A stretch of DNA of 64,000 bases from an uncultured Spirochaetota bacterium. Lineage in GTDB: Bacteria; Spirochaetota; Brevinematia; Brevinematales; JAOACQ01. Each line of letters opens with the position of its first letter. The first letter of the stretch is position 1. A program made the translations under genes and the position numbers. Shown here in pieces: positions 2,439-21,603 of the stretch. The stretch lies in contig CAWAOD010000011.1 of assembly GCA_963783575.1 (NCBI GenBank), positions 128,001 to 192,000 of the forward strand, read 5' to 3'. Below the pieces are notes generated by a model. That model was not told the origin of the DNA, did no database searches, and worked only from the letters and a program-made list of their open reading frames with translations.

Positions 2439-3389
2439 ATGTCTCATATAATATTATTTTTAATTCTTCTGGTTTTCTTATTCGGTATTTGTGCGCTTTT
2501 TTTTACAGGATACAGGCAGTTCAAATCAAAAAACCGTCATTTAAAATACATATTTTTTTTCCTGGCCGTGCTTGATTTGAAACTTCTGCTTAATTATATA
2601 CTGCTTTATTTTAAAATCAACCTTACTTTTAATTCAAGCTTCCAGTTTATACTGTATACTGTCAGCGAAGATGTTTCATATCTGCTGATTTTTCTGTTTC
2701 CGCCGGTTTTTCATTCGATTTTATCAATTCCCTGGAAAAAATTTTTCGACAGGATAGCCATTTTGGTTCTATTGGCCGCATTCATAATACGCATTATGCC
2801 GTATTTTTATAAAGCCGTTTTCCCGCAGGAATATTTTTCAATTAATACGTTTCAATTACCGGAAATTCTTGTCGGCATGGTGACTATTTATATCCCGGCC
2901 GCTATTTTAATACATTTCCGCAGTCTGAAACAGCCTATTTTAAGAAAAATCGCGATTCTGGGATTATTTTTTTATATATTTGTTTTGTTGGATACTTATT
3001 TTATATTTTATGCTATTTTTATGAACAGTTATTATTCCAGGATGATATGGCCAGGTTTTGCGCTGTATGTTTTCTGGATCGTGTTTTTAACCGTTTTTTC
3101 AAATAATACAATCAGTTCAAAAACAGTTCCTGCTTTTATGGATTCAATAAGTGATGCTTTTGTCGGGAAATATTCCCTTACTTCAAAAGAAGCCGAGATT
3201 GTAAAATGGGTCATTACAGGAAAATCCAATCAGGAAATTGCTGAGCATAATTTTCTTTCCATAAAAACCATAAAAAACCACATCTATAAAATATTTCAAA
3301 AAACCGGGGTGAAAAACCGCCTGGAGCTTACTTTATTGGTCGGTTCGAACAATCAGGAATCTCAAAAAAAGGACTCCAGTCCTATCTAA
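2439..3389 (+). CDS. Membrane-anchored LuxR-family regulator 1 (multi-TM N-terminus + C-terminal LuxR HTH)
   Basis: About seven hydrophobic segments, then LTSKEAEIVKWVITGKSNQEIAEHNFLSIKTIKNHIYKIFQKTGVKNRLEL. Confidence 0.9.
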   Translation: MSHIILFLILLVFLFGICALFFTGYRQFKSKNRHLKYIFFFLAVLDLKLLLNYILLYFKINLTFNSSFQFILYTVSEDVSYLLIFLFPPVFHSILSIPWKKFFDRIAILVLLAAFIIRIMPYFYKAVFPQEYFSINTFQLPEILVGMVTIYIPAAILIHFRSLKQPILRKIAILGLFFYIFVLLDTYFIFYAIFMNSYYSRMIWPGFALYVFWIVFLTVFSNNTISSKTVPAFMDSISDAFVGKYSLTSKEAEIVKWVITGKSNQEIAEHNFLSIKTIKNHIYKIFQKTGVKNRLELTLLVGSNNQESQKKDSSPI

Positions 3390-3436
3390 AAAGTGACCAC
3401 GGACCTATGGATTTCTATCATTTTTGCTGTTATACT
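3370..3436 (+). promoter_or_regulatory. Putative LuxR operator plus sigma70 promoter (site A) for the copy 1-4 operon
   Basis: Inverted repeat AGGACT-CC-AGTCCT (3370-3383), second half-degenerate box GACCACGGACCTAT, TGGATT (3408-3413), 17 bp, then TG-n-TATACT (3431-3436). Matches site B at 17490. Confidence 0.6.
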
Positions 3437-3465
3437 CAATAATACTGAAAAGTGAGGAGAATCTC

Positions 3466-4326
3466 ATGAAAGTATTTCTAATAGTCTATGCAATAATGTT
3501 ACCGTTCATATTGCTTTATCCAATGGCCAACAGGATTGAAAAGGTCCCGATGAAGGCCTACCCGGTTATCAACATCCCTGATGGAGAATTCCTGCGATAT
3601 GGTAATTATACAAGGGGAGAAAAAACTTATGATGTGGTGTTTGTCGCAAAAATAATCACTAATGAAAACGGTAATGTTTTATACCGCATCTATTCAGATA
3701 TGATAGCTTATCCCGGAGGGAAAAAACCGCAGAAAGATTATACAAAATGGCCGTCCTATTATCTGATTGATCCGCAGAAGGGTCTTGTCCTGGAAGTGGA
3801 ACAATACTTAAGCACCAACTCGGAAGAAATGAAAAACAATACGATTTATGGAATGGGAGATACCTTTTATACTCATTATATTCTCCATCAGGACACAGGA
3901 AATGTGGAATATAAAACCAAAGGCTTTAAGGATAACGGCATTATCGAAAGTTCATACAAGGCCTATATCAAACCCGGATATTCTGCCTGGGAAGGAGGAG
4001 CCTATTTTATGTTTTCCCCGCGTTTTATGGACCCTAAGAGCGGTGGTATTATGTACTTGGTTGCTCCCGCTTTTCTGAAAGACCCGGTACCAATAACGAT
4101 CATGTCTGCCGCTAAAGAAATTATAGAAACAACTGCTGGAACTTTTAATGTTATTAAAGTGAATACGATAATGGCGGACCCGTTCATTGGTAAACTGATG
4201 GAACCGATCATCAAGAGCAGCGGATATTGGATTGAGGATTCGGACCGGAAACTGTTGATAAAAATAAAGAGATCGGCGGATAATGAATCGACACTTGATG
4301 AAATTTCAAACGTAAATATAAAATAA
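3466..4326 (+). CDS. Exported paralogue family, copy 1 (DUF3108-like C-terminus)
   Basis: ATG at 3466 after GAGGAG. Signal peptide, then family motifs PMK..IPDGEFL.YG, LIDP, PRF.D.KSGG, TxAGTF, ADPFIGKLMEP, WIEDSDR, LDEISNV. Confidence 0.85.
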   Translation: MKVFLIVYAIMLPFILLYPMANRIEKVPMKAYPVINIPDGEFLRYGNYTRGEKTYDVVFVAKIITNENGNVLYRIYSDMIAYPGGKKPQKDYTKWPSYYLIDPQKGLVLEVEQYLSTNSEEMKNNTIYGMGDTFYTHYILHQDTGNVEYKTKGFKDNGIIESSYKAYIKPGYSAWEGGAYFMFSPRFMDPKSGGIMYLVAPAFLKDPVPITIMSAAKEIIETTAGTFNVIKVNTIMADPFIGKLMEPIIKSSGYWIEDSDRKLLIKIKRSADNESTLDEISNVNIK

Positions 4327-4335
4327 GGAATAGTT

Positions 4336-5169
4336 ATGAAATTTTCACTGATATGCTTATTTTTTACTATTCAAGCCATTTTATTATTTTCCCTGGCAAA
4401 TAAAATAGAAAAGATACCTATGAAAACCTATCCTGTGGTCAATATCCCGGATGGGGAACTGCTTCGCTACGGGAATTATATCCGCGGAGAGAAAAATTCT
4501 GATACATATTATGTTACAAGATTGATTACTAATGAGAATGGTGTCTTATATAGAATCTACGCAAATTCAAATTACACCGCCGATTATACCAACTGGATTT
4601 CATATTATCTGATTGATCCGAAACAGGGAACGGTTCTGGAATCATGCGAACATTTAAGCACGAATCAGGAATATATGCGGGAAAACGCTAAATATGGGAT
4701 TGTCAATACCTTTTTTATTCACTATATCCTACACCGGGACAAAAAATATGTGGAATATACTGAAAAATCGCTTAAGGAAAATGGAGTATCGGAAAGCAGA
4801 TACAAGGTGGACATTAATCCCGGTTTTCCCTCCTGGGATGGCGGAGCCTTCTTTATGCTGTCGCCGCGCTTTATGGATGTAAAGAGCGGCGGAATATTCT
4901 ACTTAGTTGGGCCGGCATTCTTTAAAGAACCTGTCCCGGTAACCCTGAAATATGAAGCGAAAGCTTCTATCGGGACAAAGGCCGGAACCTTCCGTGTAAA
5001 AAAGATGGCAACGGTAATAGCCGATCCTTTTATCGGCAAGCTGATGGAGCCGTTTACAAAAGAAGGCAGTACCTGGGTTGAGGATTCCGACAGAAGGCTC
5101 CTAATCAAAATCCATAGATCGGATGAAAATGAAACATTTCTGGAAGAGATTTCGAATATACTAAAATGA
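4336..5169 (+). CDS. Exported paralogue family, copy 2
   Basis: Same motifs (IPDGELLRYG, TKAGTF, ADPFIGKLMEP, WVEDSDRRLL, LEEISN). Closest to copy 1. Confidence 0.85.
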   Translation: MKFSLICLFFTIQAILLFSLANKIEKIPMKTYPVVNIPDGELLRYGNYIRGEKNSDTYYVTRLITNENGVLYRIYANSNYTADYTNWISYYLIDPKQGTVLESCEHLSTNQEYMRENAKYGIVNTFFIHYILHRDKKYVEYTEKSLKENGVSESRYKVDINPGFPSWDGGAFFMLSPRFMDVKSGGIFYLVGPAFFKEPVPVTLKYEAKASIGTKAGTFRVKKMATVIADPFIGKLMEPFTKEGSTWVEDSDRRLLIKIHRSDENETFLEEISNILK

Positions 5170-5187
5170 AGTAAAGAGGAGTTTTTT

Positions 5188-6048
5188 ATGAAAGTATTTT
5201 CAGTGATTATATTATTTATAATTCAATCCGTTTTATTATTTCCATTGGCTAATAAGATTGAACAGGTGCCGATGAAAATAGCACCCCGTCTGACAATTCA
5301 GGACGGCGAATTATTGCGGTACGGATTTTACGCCGGCGGGGAAAAAGCCGGGGACAATTACTTTATTACCAGAATTATACAGGACGAATCAAAAAATAAA
5401 CTGGCTCAAATCTATTATCAAGCTGCCAAAATTAACTCCGGGAAAGAAATGCCTGGAAACTATACTAATTTTTCTTCCAGGTTTCTAGTTTCGATTGACC
5501 GGTGTACTCTGCTTGAGGCTGACGGTGAAGAGAAAATCGATACAAACAATCATAAGCTGGAAAATATACCATCGGGATATGCCGGTTTATTTTCCTGGCA
5601 TTATAACCTGAACACCGAAAAAGAGCAGATCGATTATGAAAATAAAATCTGGGACGGTTATGAAGTAAAATCTCGAAAAAGCCGGATTCCGGTTCATCCC
5701 GGTTTTCCATGCCGGGACTGGATGTCCGGGATGTTCTTCTCCGCCAGGTTTATGGATATCAAATGCCCGGGCGTTTTCTACTTTATTTTACCGGAAGCCC
5801 TGAAAGATCCCATACCTTTAACTTTTAAAACAATCAAAAAGGAAACCCTTACCACAAAAGCCGGGACATTCAAAACGGTTAAAATGGGGATGAATGCCGC
5901 CGATCCTTTTTTAGCCAGGCTTATCGAACCTTTTTCCAGGATGATGTACTTATGGGTTGAGGACTCGGACAGAAAGCTTATAGTGCAGATACAGCTTCCC
6001 GCCGGTTTTTTTAAGCTGGAAGAAATTTCGAATATGAATATTAAATGA
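5188..6048 (+). CDS. Exported paralogue family, copy 3
   Basis: IQDGELLRYG, TKAGTF, ADPFLARLIEP, WVEDSDRKL, LEEISN; signal peptide. Confidence 0.85.
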   Translation: MKVFSVIILFIIQSVLLFPLANKIEQVPMKIAPRLTIQDGELLRYGFYAGGEKAGDNYFITRIIQDESKNKLAQIYYQAAKINSGKEMPGNYTNFSSRFLVSIDRCTLLEADGEEKIDTNNHKLENIPSGYAGLFSWHYNLNTEKEQIDYENKIWDGYEVKSRKSRIPVHPGFPCRDWMSGMFFSARFMDIKCPGVFYFILPEALKDPIPLTFKTIKKETLTTKAGTFKTVKMGMNAADPFLARLIEPFSRMMYLWVEDSDRKLIVQIQLPAGFFKLEEISNMNIK

Positions 6049-6061
6049 GGAGTGTTTTTCC

Positions 6062-6908
6062 ATGGAAGTATTTTTGATATTATTCATATTCAGCATGCAG
6101 GCTGTTTTGCTTTATCCTATGGCCAATAAAATAGAAAAGATCCCAATGAAAACATACGGCGATACTGTGATTCCCGACGGGGAGTTTCTTCATTACATTG
6201 TCTACTTCGGCGGGGAAAAGGACTCGGATTATTATTACGTGACCAGAAAGGAAACGGATGAAAATGGGGCATTATACTACCGGATATACTATATAGCAAT
6301 TCCGGTAACGGAGGGCAAAAAGCCGCCTGAAAATTATTCAAACTGGCCCTCGACTTTCATGATCGATCCGGCGCGGGGTTCGCTCATAGAATCGGAAGTC
6401 AGGATCAATCCCAATGACTCGGTAGTGGGATAAATTCGGAGTAGGATACAAAGTTTACGTCCATTATAAGCTTTTTCGGGATAAGGGCTTTGCGGAATAC
6501 CATTCAAAAACAGTGAATGATTACGGAACGAATGAAAGGACATACATTGTGAAATTCGATACCGGCATTCCAAGTGATAGTCCGGCAGGAGCTTATATTA
6601 CGCAGAGGTTTTTAAATTTTAAAAATGGAGGCATTTGCTATTCCATCATTCCCGAAGTTATGAAAGGAGCAATGCCCAGTACCGCGAAATATATTTCTAA
6701 GGATACGGTCCGGACAAAAGCGGGGTCTTTTAATGTCGATAAATACCATATCATCATCGCAGATACTTTCATAAGTAAACTGATAGGACAAATGATGGGG
6801 GATTCTATTATGATGGTCGAAAATTCGGTCAGGCACCTGGTCGTCAAATCTGATATTCCCGGCGGCCGTGTGGAACTGGATGAAATTTCAAACATAAATA
6901 TAAGATAA
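6062..6908 (+). pseudogene. Exported paralogue family, copy 4, frameshifted near 6425
   Basis: ORFs 6062-6433 and 6513-6908 are the two halves. Alignment to copy 9 (NPNDSIKW) shows ~2 nt missing at TCGGTAG^TGGGAT. Confidence 0.85.
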
Positions 6909-7037
6909 TTAAACCAGTATTTTTCCTCTTCTTCTTTGCAACATTTTATGAAGAAGTATAAAATTATATATTAATATTGAAGCACGTGCTTCATTATGGT
7001 ATATTATAGCTTATACAAATTAAAAAGAGGGAAACCG

Positions 7038-7967
7038 GTGAAACATATAGATATTTTAATTCATATTTTGTGCTTATTCTCCGGGATGTTAGCTGCGCTT
7101 CTGGTGTTTTTGCTCTACCTGAAATATAAATTGAAAGTGATATGGAATTACTCTTTATTTATTTTTACGACTACTTTAACCGTAGCCGTGACAACTTATT
7201 ACAGCTATGTTTCCTATTTTATGAATTTCAGTCCGAATTCTTTTTCCATTGCAATAGGAATGCTGGTTTTCGGTATATTTTTATCGCTGATCAATTATGC
7301 TTTTTCCATGTTAGCTCTGGGTATAATGAATAAGCCTGTTTCTTTTTTTAATAAATTGTTTATTGGAATTCCCTGGTTGATAACTGCTTTATCAATAATA
7401 ACAATTATTTATTTTAACTTCGTAAAAGTAAGCTTGCCGTTTCTATCTGTAATCAATATGTTTACCGGATTAATACTGATAAATCTGTTTCTGTCATTTG
7501 TCATATACAGCATACAAATTTATATGAATTTAAAAAATATAGAAAATCCTGATTTAAAGGCTACGTTAAAAGTCCTGGCTTTTTTATTCATTATTTATAT
7601 ACCTCTACAGGCCGTTGTGATAGCATTTATAAAGCAGACGGTTATTATCTTTCTTTCACGCAATATCTTTTACTTTTTGGTTAACACGATTAGTGTCATT
7701 TTTGCTGCCAGATACTTTTTTATGAATACGCCTTCAATAATGGAACACATAGAAATTTCAGGTCATTTTATGAAGATATTTTCGGTAACAAAAAGGGAAA
7801 AAGAGGTGATAGAGCTTCTTTTGAGCGGATTATCCATAAAGGAAATCAGCGGAAAATTGATACGCTCTTTTAAAACCGTAAATAATCATATCTATAATAT
7901 TTACCGGAAAACAAATGTCAACAGTAAAATGGAGCTGTTGAATCTTATTAAAGAGAATCGCATTTAA
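7038..7967 (+). CDS. Membrane-anchored LuxR-family regulator 2
   Basis: GTG start after AGAGGG. Multi-TM region, then VTKREKEVIELLLSGLSIKEISGKLIRSFKTVNNHIYNIYRKTNV. Confidence 0.88.
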   Translation: MKHIDILIHILCLFSGMLAALLVFLLYLKYKLKVIWNYSLFIFTTTLTVAVTTYYSYVSYFMNFSPNSFSIAIGMLVFGIFLSLINYAFSMLALGIMNKPVSFFNKLFIGIPWLITALSIITIIYFNFVKVSLPFLSVINMFTGLILINLFLSFVIYSIQIYMNLKNIENPDLKATLKVLAFLFIIYIPLQAVVIAFIKQTVIIFLSRNIFYFLVNTISVIFAARYFFMNTPSIMEHIEISGHFMKIFSVTKREKEVIELLLSGLSIKEISGKLIRSFKTVNNHIYNIYRKTNVNSKMELLNLIKENRI

Positions 7968-8047: not shown

Positions 8048-8836
8048 ATGATAAGAATTTTGTTATTATTTATCGTTTTAGCGTTCGTTCTTCAAGGTTG
8101 TGCACCAATTTCCATAACGAGAAGCAATTATAGAAATCCTATGCCGGATAGTATCCGGCTGTCGCCGGATGTAACCCTGACACCGACCGGAGAAGTTCAT
8201 ATATTTGTCGCCGGTCTAGTCAATACGGATTTTTATCCTTCCAGTTTCAGGATTGATGCTTCCGGAAAAGTTATTTATATTGATCCTGTGGAGGTAGACG
8301 GACAAGCATTTGCGGATTACATATTCATTACCCATGCGCATGGCGATCATCTTTCTCTGCCTGACATAAAAAAGCTGTCGAAAAACAATACTCTGATAAT
8401 TTGTCCGGAAATGGCCGCAGATAGACTTTCGGATTATAAGATAAGAGTAATAAAACCGGGGGATATAATTGATTTTGGAGATATTAAGTGCGAGGCCGTT
8501 GCGGCATATAATATTAACTCAGGACTTTTCGGATTGACCGCTCATCCAAGGACGGATAAGAACGTAGGTTATATACTGACCATTAGCGGCATAAGAATTT
8601 ATCATGCGGGGGATACGGATTTAATACCGGAAATGAAGGGGATTAAGAATATAACCGCGGCACTGGTTCCCATCGGAGGAGGAAATCTAACTACGGGGCC
8701 GGCGGAGGCCGCGGAGGCAATAAATATAATCAAACCTTTGATTGCCATACCAATGCATTATGTGCCGGGAACAAACCAGGCTGAAACATTCAAAAAGCTG
8801 GTTGATACAGGAATTCAGGTGAGAATAATGAAATAA
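8048..8836 (+). CDS. MBL-fold metallohydrolase (UlaG/UPF0173-like), probable lipoprotein
   Basis: THAHGDH, YHAGDT and IPMHY motifs; LQGC lipobox. Confidence 0.88.
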   Translation: MIRILLLFIVLAFVLQGCAPISITRSNYRNPMPDSIRLSPDVTLTPTGEVHIFVAGLVNTDFYPSSFRIDASGKVIYIDPVEVDGQAFADYIFITHAHGDHLSLPDIKKLSKNNTLIICPEMAADRLSDYKIRVIKPGDIIDFGDIKCEAVAAYNINSGLFGLTAHPRTDKNVGYILTISGIRIYHAGDTDLIPEMKGIKNITAALVPIGGGNLTTGPAEAAEAINIIKPLIAIPMHYVPGTNQAETFKKLVDTGIQVRIMK

Positions 8837-8879
8837 AATAAAGGAGATATAAAATAAAATTAAAAAGTGTTTAATAATT

Positions 8880-9045
8880 TCCCCTCCTACGGATGGGCTA
8901 GGGGTGGGTTCCTTCGATAGTGCTGTTGAGCATGAAGCCGAGGAATCAGGAATCGGTCGTCGTGGTTCGACAAGCTCATTGAAATATCCTAAATCCGGTT
9001 CTTGAGTCTGCCGAAGGTCTCAGTGCATCGCTCCGTAGGAGGGGA
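8880..9045. repeat. REP-like composite palindromic element
   Basis: Perfect 14-bp inverted ends TCCCCTCCTACGGA (8880-8893) and TCCGTAGGAGGGGA (9032-9045) enclosing TTCGACAAGCTCA and TGAGTCTGCCGAAGG units. GC-rich in an AT-rich spacer. Confidence 0.7.
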
Positions 9046-9406
9046 GTTTACAGAACAAGGTTTTATTTGTAAATATAGTATTAAATTATCAACTTATATT
9101 TATAAAACTTTTGACAATACTCAGATTATTTAAAGAGGATAATTATGAATAAAGCTCTGCGGTTTGATTTTGGGATATTGATCCTACTGATATTTTTTGC
9201 AGAGAGGGGCTTCCCGGTGGGCATTAAAGAAAAAATACCAATGAAGCCCTATGAGGTTATTAAAATTCCAGACGGAGAATTTCTTCACTATGTTAATTAT
9301 ACCGGCGGTGAAAAGGACAGTGATACCTATATGGTTACAACTATAGAAACGGGCAAAAATGGAGAAACCGTTTACCGTATTTATTTTGACCAGATATCGC
9401 TATCTA

Positions 9407-10539
9407 GTGCTTAATTGCGTAAGTTAACGATAGTATTTCTTAATTGAGAACCTTTCACTTCCCGTTTTCTCCACACAAAAGGTTTTGCGGTTTCAGTGTA
9501 TGCTTTAACAAATGCATCTATTGCTTCTCTCAATTCTTCCGTGTTTTTAAAACTGGCGCCTCTAAGAGCTTTTCGGCTCATAATACCAAACCATATTTCC
9601 ACCTGATTTAACCAACTTGCCGAAGTAGGCGTGTAATGAAAAAAAACATTCTTATTCCGGGATAACCATTCATCGTTCTTTTTGTGAATACAATAATTGT
9701 CTAAAATTACATGAATTTCTTTATCTTTTGAAACATCTACCACCACTCTATCCATAAACTCAAGAAATTCAATACGTCTTTTGTATTCAGTAGTTTGGGT
9801 GTGTATTAACCCTGTAGCTACTTCCAGCGCAGCAAATAGGTTCAGCGTTCCATTTCTTTTATATGTACTTTTGTATCCTCTTACAATTTTTCCATTATCC
9901 GTCTCTACATAGCCGGTTGTCCTTTCCAACGCTTGAATACCAGGTTTTTCGTCTACAGATATAACCAATGCATTCATCGGCGGATTTAAATACAACCCAA
10001 TAATATTTGTGGCTTTTGTCGAAAATTCAGGATCAGTGCTGACACACCAACTTCGCTGTCGGGATAAGCAAATTCCTTCTTTTCTTAAAACCCTCCATAC
10101 CGCATGCGTTGATGTGTTTAAATGTTTTGCTAAAGCCGGACCATCCCAAATTGCCTGCCCGATAGGCGGTGTTTTTTCCAGAGTTTCTAAAACTTTGTCC
10201 CTGAAATTCTGCCCATATATTTTTGGCTTTCCTGACCTGGGCAGATCATACAATCCATCAATTCCTTTTTGCTGAAATCTTTTTTTCCAATCAATAACCG
10301 TATTTGGTCTTATGTGAAGGTCAGCCGCAATCTCAGATACATTTTGTCCTTTCAGGCTATTGACAATTATTTTCGCCCTCTCTACAAGTCGCGCTTCCAT
10401 AGTTCGGCTTCTCACCCAACTATCAAGAATAATTTCATCCGCTTTGGTGCATGTTATAACTTGCGTTTTCTTAGACATACAACCTCCTTTTTTATGTCTA
10501 AGATTATAATTAATAACGCTTATTATTGCAATTAAGCAC
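9407..10539 (-). mobile_element. IS630-family insertion sequence
   Basis: Perfect 12-bp terminal inverted repeats GTGCTTAATTGC / GCAATTAAGCAC. TA duplicated at 9405-9406 and 10540-10541 within a CTAG target. Confidence 0.93.
9411..10478 (-). CDS. IS630-family transposase
   Basis: N-terminal HTH (DLPRSGKP); DDE motifs SVDEKPGIQA, VILDNY, SWLNQVEIWF. Confidence 0.95.
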   Translation of the reverse strand: MSKKTQVITCTKADEIILDSWVRSRTMEARLVERAKIIVNSLKGQNVSEIAADLHIRPNTVIDWKKRFQQKGIDGLYDLPRSGKPKIYGQNFRDKVLETLEKTPPIGQAIWDGPALAKHLNTSTHAVWRVLRKEGICLSRQRSWCVSTDPEFSTKATNIIGLYLNPPMNALVISVDEKPGIQALERTTGYVETDNGKIVRGYKSTYKRNGTLNLFAALEVATGLIHTQTTEYKRRIEFLEFMDRVVVDVSKDKEIHVILDNYCIHKKNDEWLSRNKNVFFHYTPTSASWLNQVEIWFGIMSRKALRGASFKNTEELREAIDAFVKAYTETAKPFVWRKREVKGSQLRNTIVNLRN

Positions 10540-11171
10540 TAGTACAAAAAAGCTTCCTGTAAATTTTACTGACTGGCCGTCATTTACCAGAATAGATCCA
10601 AAGCGAGGCTCCGTTATGGAATGGGAAGAAACTTACGATACGAATGCATCGATTTATAAAAATAATGAAAATGCTTACTATCCTTACTATTTTCAATATA
10701 AATATTTTCCCGAAAAAGGTTATGTTGATGAGTTTATAAAATCAATAAAAGGGAATCAAACTTCCGATGTAAAATATCATGTGAAAGTGAATCCTGATTT
10801 TCCGATATGGGATCAAATTTCATTCGGATTTCATTCTGCGCGCTTTATAGATGCAAAGAGCGGAGGCATTGCGTATATGATTGCTCCTTTTATGATAAAA
10901 GATCCTGCACCGGTCACTTTCAAATATATTTCAACCGAAACAATTAAAACAAAAGCCGGGGTTTTCCGTGCAAATAAAATCAATATTGTTGTTGCGGACG
11001 CTTTCATTGGTAAACTTATGGAGCAGGTGATGAAAACCTCGGCGCTCTGGATCGAAGATTCCGATAGAAGGATTCTTTTAAAAGTACAATTGATGGGAAA
11101 TGATACAATTTTAGAGGATATTTCAAACGTTAAATAATATAATTTAGAATAATTAATTTATGGAGTAAAAT

Positions 11172-11858
11172 ATGGCTATTGAAATCAAGACAATTAATAC
11201 AGGAGTGAATTGCTATCTTCTTAAAACCGGATTAGATTTTTTCCTGATTGATACCGGTTTTTCCTCAAAAAAAGCATTGTTAGTCAATGAACTTGAGAAC
11301 GCCGGCTGCAATCCGGGCAACCTTAAACTTATCATTTTAACTCATGGCGATATTGATCATACAGGCAATTGCGCTTATTTAAGGGAAAAATACGGCACAA
11401 AAATAGTAATGCATAATGATGATACCGGAATGGCGGAAAACGGCGATATGAGTTTAAACAGGAAAAATAAGCCGGATAAAGTCTCTATAATTTTCAGATT
11501 AATTGGAGTTTTTTTCGGCGGTTCTATAAAATATGATAAATTTAAACCGGACATTATTATTGAGGGCGGGCAGGATCTTTCCGAATTTGGCTACAATGCA
11601 AGAATAATTCATATTCCAGGGCACTCAAAAGGTTCAATCGGCATTCTGACAGCCGAGGGAAGTCTGTTTTGCGGTGATCTGCTTATTAATTTCATTAAGC
11701 CGGGTTTTCATTTTTATATTGACAGTATGGCCGATGCAAAATCAAGCATTGAAAAACTATCAAAATTTAAAATTGATACCGTCTACCCCGGGCATGGCAG
11801 GCCATTCATCTGGGAGAAATTTCTGAAAAATTATCATAAGAAAAATAATAAGAAATAA
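11172..11858 (+). CDS. MBL-fold metallohydrolase (glyoxalase II-like)
   Basis: VNCYLL, LIDTG, THGDIDHTG, PGHSKGS, FCGD, VYPGHG. Confidence 0.9.
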   Translation: MAIEIKTINTGVNCYLLKTGLDFFLIDTGFSSKKALLVNELENAGCNPGNLKLIILTHGDIDHTGNCAYLREKYGTKIVMHNDDTGMAENGDMSLNRKNKPDKVSIIFRLIGVFFGGSIKYDKFKPDIIIEGGQDLSEFGYNARIIHIPGHSKGSIGILTAEGSLFCGDLLINFIKPGFHFYIDSMADAKSSIEKLSKFKIDTVYPGHGRPFIWEKFLKNYHKKNNKK

Positions 11859-12720: not shown

Positions 12721-13137
12721 ATGAACATAAAGGTGTTTTATCAATCAAAGACTGGAAATACAAAAAAGGTGGCTGATGCGATGGCTGCAGCAGCGGGTTG
12801 TGAAGCCCTGCCGACGGCTAATGCCCATCAACCGGTCGAAGCTGATTTATTGCTTATTGGAGGGGCGGTTTACGCAATCTATGACCATGATATCCATCCG
12901 GATTTAAAGCGGTTTATCGGCAGCCTTGATTCCCGAAAAATTAAAAGGGCGGCGGTTTTCTGTACCGGTTTTCAGGAAGCGGCAAATAATATTATGAAGA
13001 ACCTGTTAGAAAAAAGAGGCATTCCAGTGGAGAAGGAAAGTTTTACCTGTAAAGGTAAATTTCTTCTTTTTAATTTTGGACATCCCGACAAAGTAGATCT
13101 GAATAATGCGAAAGAGTTTATCGGAAGGTTTTTGTGA
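12721..13137 (+). CDS. Flavodoxin-like protein
   Basis: YQSKTGNTKKVA FMN phosphate loop. Confidence 0.85.
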   Translation: MNIKVFYQSKTGNTKKVADAMAAAAGCEALPTANAHQPVEADLLLIGGAVYAIYDHDIHPDLKRFIGSLDSRKIKRAAVFCTGFQEAANNIMKNLLEKRGIPVEKESFTCKGKFLLFNFGHPDKVDLNNAKEFIGRFL

Positions 13138-13152: not shown

Positions 13153-13620
13153 ATGAATATAGGTATTATCGTTTTTTCAGGAACAGGAAATACCCTTTCT
13201 GTTGCACAAAAGCTTAAAGAAAAATTATCATCAATTGGTCATACCGCAGTCCTGGAACAGATTAAGGTTTCGGGTTATAATCCGCGGAAAATTGGCAATT
13301 TTCAATTTACCGATGTGCCCGATGCCGGACGGTATGATGCGATTGTTTTTACGGCCCCCGTGCAGGCTTTTTCTCTGTCACCGGTTATGAAAAAATATTT
13401 TGAACGGTCCGGTTCACTGAAGGGCAAGAAGGCTGCCTGCCTGGTAACACAATATTTTCCATTTTCCTGGATGGGCGGCAGGCAGGCGATCGGCTGGATG
13501 AAAAATTTCTGTGTATCCAAAGGCATTGAAGTCCTGGGAACAGGGATAGTGAATTGGTCAAAAAAAGACCGCGATCATCAAATAGTTGAAGTAGTCGACC
13601 GGTTAAGCGGATTATTTTAA
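13153..13620 (+). CDS. Flavodoxin-like protein
   Basis: VFSGTGNTLSVA loop; YDAIVFTAPV. Confidence 0.85.
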   Translation: MNIGIIVFSGTGNTLSVAQKLKEKLSSIGHTAVLEQIKVSGYNPRKIGNFQFTDVPDAGRYDAIVFTAPVQAFSLSPVMKKYFERSGSLKGKKAACLVTQYFPFSWMGGRQAIGWMKNFCVSKGIEVLGTGIVNWSKKDRDHQIVEVVDRLSGLF

Positions 13621-13645: not shown

Positions 13646-14389
13646 ATGAATGCAAAAAAGAATGAACTTAATTCTGATATAGTTGATTCACCATGGAAGG
13701 TTATATGCAGGATCGGGGGGATAGCTGCTATTATTTTTATTGTTTATTCCCTTGTCACTTTCATAGTTTTATTTAAATTAGGCGCAGGCACCGATACCGT
13801 TTTGGAGTATTATACTTTGTTGCATAATAATAGAATTGAGGGCCTTTTAAAGCTCGATATACTGACCGCTATATGCATGCCGCTGTATTACCTGCTATTT
13901 TTTGGGATCTACGCTGCGCTCAGGAAAACCGAGGGAGCGCTTACAGCTCTGGGTACGATTTTTATATTCATAGGGGTTACACTTTTCCTTGCTACACCTT
14001 CCGTTTTTTCTATGGCATACTTAAGTGATCAATATGCTGCGGCTATCACCGATTCACAAAGATCACAGCTCCTGGCGGCGGGAGAAGCCGTAATGGCTTC
14101 AGATATGTGGCATGGCACCGGGGCTCGCATCGGCGGTTTTATCATTGAAAGTGCCGCCCTGTTTATATCATTTGTTATGTTTCGGAGCAAGGTTTTTGGG
14201 AAATTGACGGCTTATGTTGGAATTATTACTAACGGTCTCGACCTGATACATATTATTGTAAACGTTTTCCAGCCGGGTATCGGCTCTGTTCTTATGGCCA
14301 TCTCCGGTACGCTATATCTTGCCTGGTTTCCGCTGTTAGCCTGGAGGCTTTTACAATTAGGGCATATTGATAGAAAAGGCATTTCATAA
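13646..14389 (+). CDS. Integral membrane protein (DUF4386-like)
   Basis: Six to seven TM segments; LSDQYAAA...AAGEA and FGKLTAYVGI motifs typical of DUF4386-type proteins. Confidence 0.6.
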   Translation: MNAKKNELNSDIVDSPWKVICRIGGIAAIIFIVYSLVTFIVLFKLGAGTDTVLEYYTLLHNNRIEGLLKLDILTAICMPLYYLLFFGIYAALRKTEGALTALGTIFIFIGVTLFLATPSVFSMAYLSDQYAAAITDSQRSQLLAAGEAVMASDMWHGTGARIGGFIIESAALFISFVMFRSKVFGKLTAYVGIITNGLDLIHIIVNVFQPGIGSVLMAISGTLYLAWFPLLAWRLLQLGHIDRKGIS

Positions 14390-14459: not shown

Positions 14460-14503
14460 GACTGGAGAATACAGTTGATGAGATGGCAAATGGAGGAAAT
14501 TTT

Positions 14504-15362
14504 ATGAACCGGCTATTAAAAATTTTTATCGGGGGCCTTTTTTTAATTTTGTTTTTCACAGCCGGCGCTTTTTCGATGGGAAACAACAAGCTTGTTCCAA
14601 TGAAGTTATATCCGGCAGTTGATATTCCCGACGGGGAGTTCCTTCATTACGGATTTTTATCCGCAGGAGAAAAGTCTTCGGACTATTATTTTGTTACCAG
14701 AAAGATAACTGACGGGAAAGGAGGTTTTTTTTACCGTTGTTATGAGGACATAATTTCAATTTCAAGCCGCAGGAAACCCGATAAAAATTATACCAGCTGG
14801 CCAATTTATTATGATATTGACCCTAAACTCGGTTCGGTTATAAGCTCGGTGGGAAATTTGACCGCTGAAGACACTAAAGATTGGCCCAAAGCCCCCTCCG
14901 GAGAAATCTTTTTATCCTGGAATTACCGGCTGGACAATGATAAAGGCACAGTGGAATACAGTTCAAAAATGCTAAAAGGCAAAGAAACAAACGAGAGTAA
15001 ATCCCTTGTGAAATTCAGCACCGGTTTTCCCAGCACCGACCAGTGGGGGGGATCAACATTATTCCGTCTATTAGACCCCCGAAGCGGCGGCGTATATTAT
15101 GTAATTACCGCGATGTATATGAAGGAGCCAATGCCGTTTACCATAAAATATATTTCTACAGAAACCATTGAAACGAAAGCCGGGACTTTCCGTGTAGACA
15201 AATTGAATAACCTACCCGGAGACCCATTTCTTGGAAAAACTTCTGGAACCGATGATGAAGACTTCAGGATACTGGATTGAGGATTCAAAAAGGAGACTTC
15301 TTGTAAAAGATGAGATGGTGGGGGCCGGTGTTATACTTGAAGAAATTTCAAATGTAAAATAA
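14504..15362 (+). pseudogene. Exported paralogue family, copy 6, +1 frameshift near 15235 (possibly an assembly error)
   Basis: ATG at 14504 after GGAGG. Removing one A from GGAAAAACTT restores DPFLGKLLEPMMKTSGYWIEDSKRRLL...LEEISNVK* (TAA at 15360-15362). Confidence 0.85.
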
Positions 15363-15483: not shown

Positions 15484-16360
15484 ATGAAACAAGGATTGCG
15501 AGTATTATTTGTCTTATCATTATTAATAACGGTTTTTATGTTCGATTCCTGTTCAAAGAAAGGCATAAACTTTATTCCCAAGAAAGTATTTTCAGTTATT
15601 AATATCCCCGATGGTGAGTTCCTTCATTATGGCACTTATTTCGGCGGAGATAAAATCCTTGATCAATATTTTGTTACAAAGATAGAAACAAATTTAAACG
15701 GAGGCATTAATTTCAGAATTTACTGTAATTTTATATCCGTTTCGGATACTAAAAATAATCCAGGATATTTTACTAACTGGCCGATGGTAATGATAATCGA
15801 TGCGGCAAGCGGTTCCGTTATTGAATCGGAAGGAAAATTAAGCACAAACACCTTGCAGTTGCAGGCATTTGAAGAAGCCGGAATCAGGGGCCTGGTCTAC
15901 TGGCATTATCAATTATTCCAGAATAAAGGATATGTTGATTATACCTCAAAATCTTTAAAGGGCGAAGAAACGGTAACAAAGAGATTCAAGATTTATGTAA
16001 AACCCGGTTTTCCGCTTTTTGACGCTTTTTCAATCAATATATTTTCAAACCGGCTTATCGATCCGGACAGCCCGGGAATCATGTACTCGGATTATCCCGA
16101 ATTTTTTTAAGGAACCTTTGCCTATTTCAACCGGGATTGAAAAAAAAGAAATTGTAACGACTAAAGCGGGAACATTTAAGGTAAATATAATAAATACAAT
16201 TGTCGGGGACGCTTTTATCAACGCGCTTGTGGGCCCTGTTTTAAAAAACACCAGCCACCTGGTTGAGGACTCGGACAGAAGGCGTATAATAAAACGGGAG
16301 GTTCCGGGAGGGGGGACTGTTCTTGAAGAGATTTCAAACGTGAATGTAAACCGGCCGTAA
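15484..16360 (+). pseudogene. Exported paralogue family, copy 7 (lipobox-like FDSC), +1 frameshift near 16089
   Basis: ORFs 15484-16110 and 16019-16360 carry consecutive motifs (IPDGEFLHYG...GIMY | IIPNFFKEP...TKAGTF...LEEISNV). Confidence 0.85.
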
Positions 16361-16365
16361 TAAAA

Positions 16366-16456
16366 GTCACCCTGAGCCCCTTCCCTTCGACTATCGCTCA
16401 GGGAAAGCTACTCAGGACAGGTAATTGTAACCATACTTCGTCAGGCTCAGTATGAC
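16366..16456. repeat. REP-like palindromic element
   Basis: GTCACCCTGAGCC ... GGCTCAGTATGAC imperfect inverted ends enclosing CCTTCGACTATCGCTCAGGG and CTTCGTCAGGCTCAG units. Confidence 0.65.
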
Positions 16457-16551
16457 GATGGCAGTAATAAATGAGTTTTAGAATTGCCCTAAAAAAAATA
16501 ATGTGAAGGTTCATACTCGCATAAATCATCTCTTAAGAAGGATTAATAATA

Positions 16552-17469
16552 ATGGAATATCTGTTTACCGCGGCTTTTCTGATTTTGTGGATTTTATGCG
16601 CGGTTGCTCTATCTTTTTCGCTATTTTTTTCTTATAAAACCGGGAACCGGATATGGAAATTTTATTCAATATTCTATGTCTATCTGAATATTAAAATATT
16701 TTTTCATTTAATCCAGATTTATTTAAAATCCAGCCTTCCTCTTGAAAATATTTCCCAAATTTACTGGTTTGGAATTCATTCCGATGTGTCTTTACTTTTA
16801 TGCCTGTCTTTTCCAATTCTATTTCAAACTTTGACGGATGTTCCGGGCAGGAAAATACTGAACAGAATCTGCGGCATATTTTTGATATTGATTGCTCTTA
16901 TAGAAATGAATCCTTATCTGGTACAATTGATATACGGGCCTGACTCATACTTCTTTTCAATTCCTTACCTGGATAACATTTTACTTTTCCTTTCCGCCAT
17001 ATATAATTTTATAATATTTCTCTTTAATTACGGAAAAATCAAACTTTCTGAACAGAAACGGTCTGCCGTAAGCCTTCTCGCTCTATTTATGTTTTTCTTG
17101 ATTGACCACTTTTTTATTTTATTGCGGCTGTTTTTCAATCCATTAAATATCATTATGAGCTGTTTCAACATTCTGTTTTATGTCACCTGGAATATCGTCT
17201 TTTTCCGTTATCTCATTCAGGGTTTTATCAGAATTCCTGATAATTTAATGGGTATCAACCTTGAACATTCTTTTATAAAAAGATACAACCTGACGGATCG
17301 GGAAAGTGAAATTGTGAATATGCTGATTCAGGGAAAAACCAATCCATCCATCGGTGAAAAACTGTTTTTATCGATTAAAACCGTTAAAAACCATATTTAT
17401 AAAATTTACCGGAAAACAGGTGTAAAGAGCCGTATTGAACTGGCTTATCTGATTAAAAACATGAAATAA
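16552..17469 (+). CDS. Membrane-anchored LuxR-family regulator 3
   Basis: Multi-TM region, then LTDRESEIVNMLIQGKTNPSIGEKLFLSIKTVKNHIYKIYRKTGVKSRIEL. Confidence 0.9.
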   Translation: MEYLFTAAFLILWILCAVALSFSLFFSYKTGNRIWKFYSIFYVYLNIKIFFHLIQIYLKSSLPLENISQIYWFGIHSDVSLLLCLSFPILFQTLTDVPGRKILNRICGIFLILIALIEMNPYLVQLIYGPDSYFFSIPYLDNILLFLSAIYNFIIFLFNYGKIKLSEQKRSAVSLLALFMFFLIDHFFILLRLFFNPLNIIMSCFNILFYVTWNIVFFRYLIQGFIRIPDNLMGINLEHSFIKRYNLTDRESEIVNMLIQGKTNPSIGEKLFLSIKTVKNHIYKIYRKTGVKSRIELAYLIKNMK

Positions 17470-17489
17470 TAAATAGATAAAATAAAAAA

Positions 17490-17556
17490 AGGACTATTGT
17501 CCTATCAGTAACATACCAAAGTCCCATTGATTTTCGAGACTCTCAGAAATTATAAT
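17490..17556 (+). promoter_or_regulatory. Putative LuxR operator plus sigma70 promoter (site B) for copy 8
   Basis: AGGAC-TATT-GTCCT (17490-17503), TACCAAAGTCCCAT, TTGATT (17527-17532), TATAAT (17551-17556). Same 60-bp GGAC-to--10 distance as site A. Confidence 0.6.
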
Positions 17557-17583
17557 TAATGCAGGTTTCGGGGAGGCAGTTTT

Positions 17584-18450
17584 ATGAATATTAGATTCGT
17601 TTTTGTTACAGGATTATTTTCACTTATGATCGGTTCGCTGACAACGGTTTATCCGATGGGTGGTAAAGTTAAAATATTTCCTATGAAAACATATTCCTAT
17701 ATCAATATTCCCGATGGTGAATTTCTCGATTATGGGGTTTATACTGGCGGAGTAAAGAAAGAGGATATTTATTATGTTATAAAAAAGGAAACTAATGCCA
17801 AAGGAGGTATTTATTACCGTATTTATACTGATACAATATCTATTACGAATAATAAACTGATCCGGAAAAATTACACGAACTGGCCGGGATTTTCCATTAT
17901 TGATCCAAAACAGGGGGCGGTTATTGAAGCGGAGAAGTACTTCGACACTAACTCTCTAGCAGATTTCAGCGCTGTCGGGGGTAATATCTTCTATTATCAT
18001 TATCAGTTAAATGATGACAGAGGTTATGTGGATTTTGTATCGAAAACAAAAAGCAAGGAGGATGTCATATCAACAACGCACAGCAGGGTAAATGTTCAAT
18101 CCGGTTCCCCTGTGTGGGATAGAGGATCGATGTGGATGTTTTCTACGCGATTTATGGACTTTAAAAGCGTAGGGGTAGTGTTTTTGATTGTCCCGGAGGT
18201 CTTAAAAACACCTTTATCCTGTACATTTACGTTTATTTCAAAGGAAACCATTTCGACTAAAGCGGGAACATTCCGGGTTAATAAGGTAGGTTTTATGGTT
18301 TCGGATCCTTTTCTTATGAAGCTGATGGGCTGGATGGCAAAAGATGTATACTCATATGTGGATGAATCTGACAGGAGAATTATGGTAAAAACTCATACTC
18401 CATCCTCTGAATGGGTGCTTGAGGAGATTTCTAATGTGAATTTGAGATAG
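17584..18450 (+). CDS. Exported paralogue family, copy 8
   Basis: YPMGGK signal end; IPDGEFLDYG, IIDP, TKAGTF, SDPFLMKLM, DESDRR, LEEISNV. Confidence 0.85.
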   Translation: MNIRFVFVTGLFSLMIGSLTTVYPMGGKVKIFPMKTYSYINIPDGEFLDYGVYTGGVKKEDIYYVIKKETNAKGGIYYRIYTDTISITNNKLIRKNYTNWPGFSIIDPKQGAVIEAEKYFDTNSLADFSAVGGNIFYYHYQLNDDRGYVDFVSKTKSKEDVISTTHSRVNVQSGSPVWDRGSMWMFSTRFMDFKSVGVVFLIVPEVLKTPLSCTFTFISKETISTKAGTFRVNKVGFMVSDPFLMKLMGWMAKDVYSYVDESDRRIMVKTHTPSSEWVLEEISNVNLR

Positions 18451-18979: not shown

Positions 18980-19837
18980 ATGATCAAAAGTTGGAAATTC
19001 GCCGCTGAAATTTTAATAATAATACTGATTCATACTGCTTCAGCATTTTCAATGGGAAATAAAACGCTTCCGATGAAGACTTATACAGGTACGGAAATTA
19101 CCGAAGCAGAGTTTCTCCATTACTGTCAGTATTTTGGCGGAGAAAGGGATTCGGATTATTATTATGTAACGAGAACTGAAACGAATGGAAAAGGTGGATT
19201 ATATTACCGGGTATACTACATAACCATTCCGGTATCTGAGGGAAAAAAGCCGCCGGAGAATTATTCAAACTGGCCTTCATTTTTTGTAATTGACCCAAAA
19301 ACCGGTTCCATTATTGAATCGGAATTCAAACTCAATCCCAATGATTCGATAAAATGGGCAAAAGGCGGGCTGGGATATTTAATATACGGGCATTATAAAT
19401 TATTCCACGATAAAGGTTATGTCGAGTATTTTTCAAAAAAAAAGACGGATTATGGAACCAATGAGACAAGGTACATTGTAAGGTTCAATACTGATATTCC
19501 AAGCGGGGATGTTTCCGGCGTGTATTTCCAGCCTCGTTTTCTGGATCCCCTAAATACAGGTGTTTATTATAAAATCATTCCGGAATTTATGAAGGATGCA
19601 ATGCCTGTTACTATGAAATTTTTATCAAAAGAAACAATTAAGGTTAAAGCTGGAACTTTCCGGGTGAATAAATATAGCATTGTAATGGCCGATCCCTTTG
19701 TTGGAAAACTTGTCGAATCCGTTATGAAAAATTCGATAATAATGATTGAGGTTTCAGAAAGAAGACTTGTAGTTAAATCCGATATTCCCGGAGGCTATGT
19801 TGAACTTGAAGAGATTTCAAATATAAACAAGAGATAG
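18980..19837 (+). CDS. Exported paralogue family, copy 9
   Basis: AFSMGNK signal end; EFLHY, VIDP, KAGTF, ADPFVGKLVE, LEEISN. Confidence 0.85.
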   Translation: MIKSWKFAAEILIIILIHTASAFSMGNKTLPMKTYTGTEITEAEFLHYCQYFGGERDSDYYYVTRTETNGKGGLYYRVYYITIPVSEGKKPPENYSNWPSFFVIDPKTGSIIESEFKLNPNDSIKWAKGGLGYLIYGHYKLFHDKGYVEYFSKKKTDYGTNETRYIVRFNTDIPSGDVSGVYFQPRFLDPLNTGVYYKIIPEFMKDAMPVTMKFLSKETIKVKAGTFRVNKYSIVMADPFVGKLVESVMKNSIIMIEVSERRLVVKSDIPGGYVELEEISNINKR

Positions 19838-19949
19838 ACGACGATATTACAATACCGACTAATAAGATCGAGATCCTGTTTTGAATCATACCTGATAGAA
19901 TGGCAACTTCTTATCGGTTTAGGCGATACAATGGGCAAAAGAAAGGGAA

Positions 19950-20000
19950 AATCTGAAAAAATTAAAAATAAAAACCGTTTATCCGGGGTATGGAAATAAA
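19950..20000 (+). pseudogene. C-terminal remnant of an MBL-fold hydrolase
   Basis: Reads LKKLKIKTVYPGYG, matching the ends of 11172/11923 (NIKTVYPGHG). Confidence 0.5.
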
Positions 20001-20032
20001 TTTTATTCTTTCATTAAACTGGGAGGTTTACT

Positions 20033-20723
20033 ATGAATGAAATCGAAATTTATTATTTTTCAGGTACTGGAAAACAAACGGAAAACTTATACCTTTGGCC
20101 TCCGTGACGAATAAAGAAAGCATAAGTACCGATGCCGGTATAATTGGAATTATATTCCCGGTTTATTATCTTTTCAACGGGGGAAAACCGCTTATCATAG
20201 AACGATTTGTTAAAAACCTGAAAAACATTGATTTAAAATAAATATTCGCTGTATGCAAAACTGCTTTTTACGGGGTACGGCAATCAATCAATAGAATAAA
20301 ATGATCCGGAAGTATGGCGATAAGCTTTCGGCATGATTTGCAGTACAGATGCCCTATAACTATACTGACTGGTTAGAATGTTCGATAACTGGAAGATAAA
20401 GCTTGATATGATTCATGAAATCGTTAACCTAAAAGAGAAAGTAAATTTGAAACAAGTTCTAATATCAGCGAAGCTTTGTTAGGTTTGATCGGTTTAAGGA
20501 AAAATGCCAAATCTCATTATAATTGAAAGCCAATTTCAAGAAAGATCCGGGTCTTTCTTTTAATGAAATCTTGCCCTTTATGGACAGGAGCTACCGTTAC
20601 AATGAGAACTGTAATGGCTGTGGCATATGCTCGAAGATTTATCCCGTAAATAATAGAAATGAGACCTGCAATGGTACCTGGAGGAAGCAATATTTAGATA
20701 TGTTAAGGCAGGATTTGCCTTAA
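20033..20723 (+). pseudogene. Degraded EFR1-type flavodoxin-ferredoxin gene
   Basis: ATG at 20033 after GGAGG gives MNEIEIYYFSGTG. Later fragments IIGIIFPVY, QMPYNY and CNGCGICSKIYP, with several stops and shifts. Confidence 0.7.
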
Positions 20724-20763
20724 AAGGATTCCAAATTATAATAGTAAAAAATGGAGGAATAAT

Positions 20764-21603
20764 ATGACCGGTTTTTTAAGGTTTTTCTTTTTGGTAGCGA
20801 TTTTATTTTTAATTTTTCTGACTTGTGCTTTTCCGATGGGAGCGAAAAATGAAAAAATACCATTAAAGCCCTATCCGGTTATTGACATCCCGGACGGGGA
20901 GTTTCTCCATTACGGAAACTATTCGCATAGTGAAAAGTATGGTGACACCTATATGGTTATTAAAAAGGAAGCAAATGAAAGCGGGGATTTTAATTACCGT
21001 ATTTATAAGGACGATATACGCATATCGGGCGGGAAAAAGCTTCCGGAAAATTATAAAGACTGGCAGTCATCTTTCCTTATAGACCCGAAACGCGGGTCCG
21101 TTCTTGAAGCCTCTGAAAACCTTGGTTATGACCGCGAGGGTGATTCAGGAACCGCAAACTATAATTACAGGTTATATCCCGAAAAGGGCTATGTCGATTT
21201 TGTATCGAAAACTATAAAGAATAAAGTTTTATCTGAAAGTAAATACCGTGTTAAAGTAAATCCGGATTTTCCTGCCTGGGATAATTTTTCTATGTATTAC
21301 GCGCCGTGTTTTCTTGATAACCGGAGCGGGGGAATTATGTATTTGATAAATCCTGCTTTTTTCAAAGAACCTTTGCCGGTTTCATTTAAGCATTTATCAG
21401 CCGATACGATTCGGACAAAAGCCGGAACCTTCCGTACTTCTAAAGCGGTAATAATCTTTGCCGATGCCTTTATCAGCAAACTTATGGAACCTTTATTAAA
21501 AGGAACCGCAATGTGGGTTGAGGATTCTGACAGAAGGATTTTAATTAAAGCAGAGATGGCGGGATATGTAGCCTTTATAGAGGAAATTTCCAATGTGAGA
21601 TAA
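20764..21603 (+). CDS. Exported paralogue family, copy 10
   Basis: FPMGAK signal end; IPDGEFLHYG, LIDP, TKAGTF, ADAFISKLMEP, WVEDSDRR, IEEISNV. Confidence 0.85.
   Translation: MTGFLRFFFLVAILFLIFLTCAFPMGAKNEKIPLKPYPVIDIPDGEFLHYGNYSHSEKYGDTYMVIKKEANESGDFNYRIYKDDIRISGGKKLPENYKDWQSSFLIDPKRGSVLEASENLGYDREGDSGTANYNYRLYPEKGYVDFVSKTIKNKVLSESKYRVKVNPDFPAWDNFSMYYAPCFLDNRSGGIMYLINPAFFKEPLPVSFKHLSADTIRTKAGTFRTSKAVIIFADAFISKLMEPLLKGTAMWVEDSDRRILIKAEMAGYVAFIEEISNVR

Follow-up and report, generated by a model that had tools for sequence, protein, structure and literature searches.

A ten-copy array of DUF3108-like exported proteins interleaved with membrane-bound LuxR-type regulators in a Brevinematales-like spirochaete

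A 64,000-nucleotide stretch of DNA from an uncultured Spirochaetota bacterium (G000:C11:128001-192000, here called the window) contains an array of ten genes for exported proteins of one family, interleaved with three genes for membrane-bound LuxR-type regulators. The genome, G000, comprises 4.9 Mb in 18 contigs and is 89.9% complete, and no other cluster of the family in it is as large as this array. Family genes were found next to genes for such regulators far more often than expected by chance, and the gene neighborhoods and the predicted fold point to periplasmic carriers under the control of membrane sensors.

All ten copies lie on the plus strand, as do the three regulator genes, and all have signal-peptide-like starts. 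The array begins with regulator 1 (2439-3389, 316 amino acids), which has seven predicted transmembrane (TM) helices and a GerE helix-turn-helix (HTH) domain. It is followed by the intact copies 1 (3466-4326, 286 amino acids), 2 (4336-5169, 277 amino acids) and 3 (5188-6048, 286 amino acids) and by copy 4 (6062-6908), which has a frameshift near 6430. Copies 1 and 2 are sisters with 60% identity, and copy 3 belongs to a clade that differs from those of the other window copies. After regulator 2 (6996-7967, six predicted TM helices and GerE), copy 5 (9145-11137) is interrupted by an IS630 element, and copies 6 (14504-15362) and 7 (15484-16360, with a lipobox-like cysteine) have frameshifts near 15240 and 16090, respectively. 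Regulator 3 (16552-17469, 305 amino acids, six predicted TM helices and GerE) precedes the intact copies 8 (17584-18450, 288 amino acids), 9 (18980-19837, 285 amino acids) and 10 (20764-21603, 279 amino acids), the last of which was used for structure modelling. The IS630 element (9404-10542, minus strand), a recent insertion, has 14-bp terminal inverted repeats and is present in 13 genome copies that are 99.8-100% identical; its transposase (9411-10478, minus strand) reached 231.7 bits with NF033545, compared to a cut-off of 100.

The initial annotation had described ten co-oriented paralogues of about 280 amino acids. All ten starts and the common strand proved to be real, but only six copies (3466, 4336, 5188, 17584, 18980 and 20764) are intact open reading frames (ORFs) of that length, three are frameshifted, and copy 9145, which had been listed as a whole gene without mention of the insertion, is split. 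Loosened versions of the motifs reported to be shared were recovered in all ten copies, with the exceptions of TKAG in copy 3466 and ADPF in copy 17584. The pairwise identities of seven window copies range from 31 to 60%.

The three regulators of the window have six to seven TM helices and a C-terminal GerE HTH as their only recognized domain; receiver and kinase domains are absent, just as had been proposed. GerE was detected in 16 of 16 scanned regulators, which have short loops and lack a periplasmic domain, and the regulator TM domain matched no Pfam family. Judged by their sequences, they are regulators of the transmembrane one-component type, in which TM and DNA-binding domains reside in one chain that has neither receiver nor kinase. 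G000 contains 37 LuxR-HTH ORFs, and 22 of these encode proteins of 290-380 amino acids with at least six TM helices (TM-LuxR). A family gene was found within 1.5 kb of 12 of the 22 TM-LuxR genes (11 downstream, one divergent), whereas random placement (5000 rounds) yielded 0.27 on average and three at most. Only one of the 15 other LuxR genes lies near a family gene. In five relatives, 2 of 11, 5 of 17, 1 of 17, 1 of 19 and 0 of 14 LuxR genes were linked, with 0.04-0.15 expected in each case. The linkage suspected from the window alone was borne out by these counts.

The pairing of regulator and partner is kept across genera. The nearest relative of regulator 2 in genome G008 (L033) is also followed by two family genes, and in a quick tree copy 10 groups as sister with a G008 gene (L033) that likewise follows a TM-LuxR. 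In G000, the distances between regulators and the distances between their partners correlate (rho 0.43, p 0.006, n=11). A large MalT-like LuxR protein without TM helices precedes a family gene in G000 (C3:70937-74500, L001) and in G010 (C7, L102), and these loci carry conserved upstream repeats of their own.

Upstream of LuxR-linked copies, two half sites were found at a distance of 21-23 bp. The second half site ends at a -35-like TTG, and a -10 box follows 17-18 bp after this TTG. A matrix was built from eight training sites, five of them from G000 (a ninth candidate, which lacks the first half site, was left out), and the leave-one-out scores ranged from 18.7 to 33.4 bits. Scanning of G000 retrieved eight sites of at least 26 bits, while shuffled DNA contained none of at least 22 bits. 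Seven of the eight sites precede family genes: five are training sites, and the two held-out sites (C9:8695 and C11:411899) each have a TM-LuxR gene 1.5-3.3 kb upstream. The remaining site (C5:431493), the eighth, lies in front of an operon with the order barrel-FtsX-FtsX-LolA_like-LolD. Among 522 other upstream regions, one reached at least 14 bits, and it is the C9 site read on its reverse strand.

Two of the sites are in the window. At site 1 (3368-3410, plus strand, two direct-repeat half sites, 39.4 bits, leave-one-out 31.2), the first half site overlaps the end of the regulator 1 gene and the second lies at the -35 position, with a -10-like hexamer at 3431-3436. At site 2 (17488-17529, plus strand, 37.8 bits, leave-one-out 32.1), the second half site overlaps the TTG of the -35 box, and the -10 hexamer is at 17551-17556. 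No operator of the modelled type follows regulator 2. Sites that overlap the -35 box are typical of activators. The repeat is a candidate operator that would tie the regulators to the family genes. The initial annotation had proposed a membrane sensing system that drives a diversified bank of proteins together with enzymes; the candidate operator in front of LuxR-linked copies agrees with the first part, but no operator of this type precedes the enzymes within the array, which may be passengers.

A different element was seen at 9040-9144 in front of copy 5, consisting of a near-palindrome and an AT-rich box. It is common to a LolA_like gene and several genes for exported lipoproteins, with about ten matches (including G000 C5:42574-42707, C5:199859, C5:201752 and C5:220027), and possibly represents another regulon or a mobile promoter.

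The family could be connected to DUF3108, a lead that had already been given by the initial annotation. The PF11306 profile matched 28 of 45 aligned members at E ≤0.05 (best 2.2e-7). With a cut-off of 26 bits, the best piece from the window scored 23.3 bits, and five paralogues elsewhere scored 27.3-32.7 bits. In the Atlas ranking, a DUF3108 cluster (96% PF11306) was obtained at 0.95. The most suitable classification of the family is as a divergent subfamily of DUF3108. Searches of NCBIfam and of PDB sequences yielded nothing useful for the family. The LolA and LolA_like profiles of Pfam matched none of the 45 members, and membership in the LolA/LolB families was rejected, the similarity being one of fold only (Z 7.5). 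Membership in EipB/DUF1849 was likewise rejected, as none of the 45 members matched DUF1849 and a conserved cysteine is lacking. No conserved Cys, Ser or His was seen in the family alignment; the conserved polar positions are E46, R182, D185, K201 and D234. A lipobox-like cysteine is present in about 25 of 91 members according to a rough regular expression, and the remainder have a plain signal-peptide-like start.

The model of copy 10 (predicted local distance difference test score, pLDDT, 92.2; predicted template modelling score, pTM, 0.84) contains 15 strands and two short helices. Its comparison with EipB gave Z 10.5 (VIA; 200 residues aligned, root mean square deviation, rmsd, 4.2), and that with BDI_3050 (PDB 4fvs), which we take to be a DUF3108-like structure (PF21347), gave Z 9.8 (157 aligned, rmsd 3.7; Foldseek E 2.3e-4). 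Lower values were found for PA1994 (Z 9.1), LolA (Z 7.5) and MucB (Z 7.2), and VioE shares the fold. Modelling and structure comparison predict a beta-spiral cup of the EipB/PA1994/LolA type, in line with the LolA/DUF3108-type fold that had been envisaged. Variable residues were not sorted to one strand face in an analysis made without the model coordinates.

An iterated hidden Markov model search of G000 retrieved 55 ORF pieces, which merged into 45 family loci in 27 clusters. Relatives contain 7 (G001, a genome that is 57% complete), 16, 20, 9 and 4 matches. Seven of the 11 genomes from the same bacterial family contained matches to the protein family, as did 1 of 29 others and 9 of 301 genomes across the phylum, one of the nine being marginal. 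A profile search of 1.84 billion representative sequences gave 177 family matches, and a scan of a genome collection retrieved one locus only. The family is thus nearly confined to one family of Brevinematales-like spirochaetes. DUF3108, by comparison, is widespread, occurring in 83 of 201 spirochaete genomes, mostly with one to three copies, and G000 also keeps separate canonical DUF3108 genes.

The seven window copies included in a 39-row tree are not monophyletic (p-AU 2e-44), and a single tandem burst as the origin of the array was therefore ruled out. This test was run after a quick 91-row tree, in which two rows have long branches, had been viewed. The ratio of nonsynonymous to synonymous substitution rates (dN/dS) was 0.08-0.18 as whole-gene averages in 13 orthologue pairs with finite dS (14 were tested), similar to the 0.07-0.12 of three neighboring genes, and the orthologue pairs are 59-94% identical across genomes. 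A fast-diversifying bank is not supported by these values. Instead, as far as whole-gene averages reveal, the sequences indicate stable paralogues with slow gene birth and death and not an arms race. Nine of the 45 loci are broken, namely, 7 of 14 in the two large arrays versus 2 of 31 elsewhere. Arrays seem to gain old paralogues and then lose them, which would account for the four broken copies among the ten in the window. Of 60 control genes, 5 were broken, the 13 IS630 copies contain no indels, and some breaks in family genes are at short homopolymer runs; these counts leave assembly error as a possible cause of frameshifts.

Outside the window, family genes recur in operons of a lipid-export type. 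A barrel protein of about 370 amino acids is encoded directly after a family gene in seven of seven matches, which are distributed over 6 of 41 genomes, the six being related. It has no Pfam match. Its model (pLDDT 71, from seven sequences) had BamA as the best Foldseek match (E 5e-5); 12 of the 13 Foldseek rows with E ≤0.001 were BamA, TamA or Sam50, POTRA domains are lacking, and the Atlas placed it in an Omp85 cluster at 0.95 (28% of members). According to the model, the partner barrel is a POTRA-less Omp85-like protein with a BamA/TamA-type fold. In five genomes (G004, G006, G008, G010 and G011), a core operon contains, in this order, genes for a B12-radical S-adenosylmethionine protein, the family protein, the barrel and a second barrel-like protein. 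These are followed by a methyltransferase, a deacetylase, an acyltransferase, a LolD-type ATPase, two FtsX/MacB permeases and a LolA_like protein, with small differences between genomes. The core operon of G004 is adjoined by genes for FabG, two ketoacyl synthases and a desaturase-like flavoprotein.

Other Lol-type operons with family genes were found in G000, G004, G006, G008 and G010. One G010 operon runs from TM-LuxR and operator through three family genes to permeases and LolA_like. A family gene on the same strand lies within 5.5 kb of 7 of 48 LolA_like genes (0.78 expected) and within 13.5 kb of 14 of 48 (1.9 expected), two of which look incidental. Five of ten metagenome loci with the barrel have a family gene upstream (three of these repeat counted genomes), and two are too short. 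A distant family homologue in G165 is part of an operon with the order MMPL, DUF3108-like, LolA_like. The window itself contains no Lol-type transporter, and its link to these operons consists of paralogy and the shared operator. Proteins similar to Borrelia P13 were seen inside the core operon (L043:14250-15492 and L116:7881-8501), below the cut-off in two of three cases. Lipid enzymes also seemed enriched near dispersed copies; this observation has no control and is not counted as evidence. In the Lol-type operon of G000 at C5:426000-431400 (L047), the barrel gene is frameshifted and a permease gene is broken.

Taken together, the results are best explained if the family consists of periplasmic carriers of hydrophobic cargo, which came from a lipid-export operon, were multiplied and were brought under membrane sensors, and we estimate the probability of this explanation at about 50%. 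The conserved operons suggest that the ancestral task was to move a specialized lipid across the periplasm, presumably outward. Each regulator would sense a compound in the inner membrane, bind the repeat beside the -35 box and thereby activate its carriers. The paralogues would differ in cargo, and the induced carriers might sequester membrane-soluble compounds or pass them on. Of the roles considered in the initial annotation, a carrier or ligand-binding protein fits best. A more far-reaching version can be put forward only tentatively. A dozen receptors with seven TM helices and a LuxR domain, each for a different membrane-soluble compound, would induce matched DUF3108-type carriers. These would deliver to a few shared Lol-like ATP-binding cassette (ABC) transporters and to a POTRA-less Omp85 barrel that serves as the exit pore for lipids, and a single route across the envelope would accommodate dozens of cargoes by means of interchangeable carriers.

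Several observations weigh against the carrier explanation. TM-LuxR genes are linked to 10 of the 27 family clusters and absent from the other 17, 10 of the 22 TM-LuxR genes have no family gene nearby, and none of the 14 LuxR genes of G004 is linked. Over all 17 regulator-partner pairs, the correlation of distances is weak (rho 0.22, p 0.045; p 0.09 for the TM part). At least 14 bits were reached by only 2 of 83 upstream regions of family genes outside the training set, and therefore the candidate operator appears to mark one regulator subfamily and not the whole family. A strict operator pattern matched once in five relatives, compared to three control matches, and the C5 transporter operon preceded by the eighth site is broken. 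The operon counts lack independence, since they derive from roughly four types of operon in genomes that are related. Three metagenome loci (L120, L121 and L123) have the barrel without an upstream family gene, and no Lol-type neighbor was detected at 28 other loci with canonical DUF3108 (44 of about 65 ORFs scanned, E 1e-12). In the fold comparison of copy 10, the top match was to an axonemal chain that is unrelated (Z 12.7). In the strand-face analysis, which did not use the model coordinates, faces were not split into hydrophobic and polar sides, and the entropies were 2.62 versus 2.37 bits. A shared fold by itself shows no function, and a cargo is proven for neither EipB nor PA1994.

The proteins might instead be envelope-maintenance chaperones similar to EipB or PA0943, the latter of which we take to be a DUF3108 protein. 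They would hold proteins or lipoproteins of the envelope, and the signal sensed by the regulators would be membrane stress and not cargo. The nearest bacterial fold is indeed that of EipB, the loss of which weakens the envelope, PA0943/PP_1663 is reported to be a periplasmic beta-spiral of 14 strands on which secretin function depends (PMC12041740), and a gene for an M50 protease is often found in front of canonical DUF3108 genes. However, one or two copies fill this role elsewhere and G000 keeps its canonical DUF3108 genes separately, while 45 stable paralogues with separate regulators better fit many cargoes, so that we regard chaperones as rather unlikely. It also appears unlikely that the family proteins are themselves the cargo, i.e., surface or secreted binding proteins or enzymes that are exported via the Lol-like ABC transporter and the Omp85-like barrel. 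This would be in accord with one barrel per genome versus 1-45 family genes and with the lipobox-like cysteines; the conserved polar residues could form a site, and VioE shares the fold. Yet most copies have no lipobox, no Ser, His or Cys is conserved, G005 and G017 have the family without a barrel match, and the barrel also occurs without the family.

Tight pairing across genera and correlated distances would also be expected if the cup protein bound a ligand and, like VtrC with VtrA, docked on its regulator's TM domain, the operator providing positive feedback. The proteins associated with known membrane regulators resemble lipocalins and bind hydrophobic molecules, as far as the sources could be consulted (PMC10269533, PMC9214523). 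Such co-sensing is quite unlikely, because the loops of the regulators are short and a periplasmic domain is lacking, a promoter and not a gene overlap separates regulator and partner, and the 10 TM-LuxR genes mentioned above have no partner at all. It is very improbable that the family forms a bank, selected in an arms race, of immunity proteins, which had been among the suggestions of the initial annotation, or of variable surface antigens. Tandem arrays with decay and a lipase-like gene before the second array are what such a bank might look like, but an operator-type promoter lies between this lipase gene and the array, the dN/dS values match those of neighboring genes, and no toxin domain was found among 84 scanned neighbors. 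VipA of type VI secretion systems was absent from five of five genomes; other secretion systems were not searched for.

The carrier explanation combines parts of known kinds. With DUF3108 (PF11306) and PF21347, the family shares the fold of 4fvs and a weak profile kinship, but it differs from canonical DUF3108 as a tight separate subfamily with up to 45 copies and different neighbors. EipB (DUF1849), PA1994 (DUF1089) and LolA/LolB are, like the modelled family, exported proteins of about 280 amino acids with 14-15 antiparallel strands around short helices, but the identities are only 6-8% at an rmsd of about 4 Å, and the family has no conserved disulfide. EipB is described in the accessible text as a periplasmic cup with a lumen that is about 66% hydrophobic and has no proven cargo (10.1101/551135). 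In Borrelia, BBJ23-29 comprise an Omp85-family barrel, a type VII ABC transporter and a LolA-like protein, and have been suggested to transfer a ligand that is non-polar from inner to outer membrane; the accessible part of this report gives no BBJ25 homologue in Brevinematales (PMC13078400). Where that system has tetratricopeptide repeat chaperones, the present operons have proteins of the DUF3108 type, a second barrel and genes for lipid synthesis. At the flexirubin locus of Flavobacterium, LolA2 and LolB2 were proposed to be pathway-specific carriers within a lipid/pigment synthesis locus; they belong to a different family, and the accessible text describes neither an expansion nor a membrane regulator (PMC11885536).

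Transmembrane transcription regulators are reported to be enriched in Spirochaetota, and in ToxR/ToxS and VtrA/VtrC, as far as these sources could be consulted, a membrane-tethered DNA-binding protein is likewise followed by an exported beta-rich protein (PMC10269533, PMC9214523). In contrast to these pairs, the regulators analyzed here have six to seven TM helices followed by a C-terminal GerE HTH and lack a periplasmic domain, and their beta-spiral partner has its own promoter. A VtrA/VtrC-type system, which requires a regulator with the HTH at the N-terminus, a single TM helix and a periplasmic domain, was rejected. By analogy, the system resembles LolA-fold carriers in pathway loci placed under a transmembrane one-component regulator. 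The combination and the 45-fold expansion appear to be new, as no description was found in the literature searched, which did not extend to subscription papers; mentions of DUF3108 in the accessible texts were list entries without a described function. The recurring lipid-export-type context would give a poorly understood family a testable task. Three handles are thus provided: an operon context for DUF3108, a candidate operator for an uncharacterized class of multi-TM LuxR proteins, and natural regulator-partner pairs for ligand discovery. The lineage also offers a concrete test of the role of a POTRA-less Omp85 barrel.

The remaining genes of the array, all on the plus strand, had been listed in the initial annotation as hydrolases of the metallo-beta-lactamase (MBL) fold, flavodoxins and a DUF4386-like protein. 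Three MBL-fold hydrolases were found: one with a Lactamase_B_3 match and a lipobox-like start (8048-8836), which is below every NCBIfam cut-off, and two cytoplasmic ones (11172-11858 and 11923-12603), which are below all beta-lactamase cut-offs. The best scores of the three were 59 and 47 bits, compared to class B cut-offs of 240 and 100 bits, respectively. The two flavodoxins (12721-13137 and 13153-13620) were verified by profile scan, whereas the membrane protein (13646-14389) has only a weak DUF4386 match (E 0.049). Decayed gene remnants are present between the last copies (19838-20763) and at 21604-22119, including a flavodoxin/ferredoxin-like start recognized by eye and a remnant of an MBL-fold gene resembling gene 11172. 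At 8868-9050 and 16361-16551, there are short intergenic repeats of a dispersed type, of which the genome contains many copies. A search of positions 1-24000 with Rfam gave no matches.

Divergent from regulator 1, a lipoprotein with a weak CBM11 match is encoded at 683-2236 (minus strand), and a gene with a similar start adjoins a family fragment on contig C4 of G000 (L113:1409-3292). Downstream of the array, ORF sequences revealed a carbon-phosphorus lyase-like (phn) operon with a phosphonate ABC transporter (23636-35981). Several transposase-like ORFs, some of them split, follow at 36228-42707 and 52574-53287, and an ORF for an 810-amino-acid protein resembling BspA-type leucine-rich-repeat lipoproteins was recognized by eye at 42957-45389 (minus strand). 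Canonical DUF3108 genes were seen after a gene for an M50/PDZ protease (RseP-like) in several spirochaetes (L135, L137, L139, L141, L147, L149 and L151). In G000, one ORF (C9:62925-64217, L152) joins a TetR-like N-terminus to a canonical DUF3108 domain (62 bits) and is followed by a flavoprotein gene, and an ORF of similar size is present in G008 (C1:896686).

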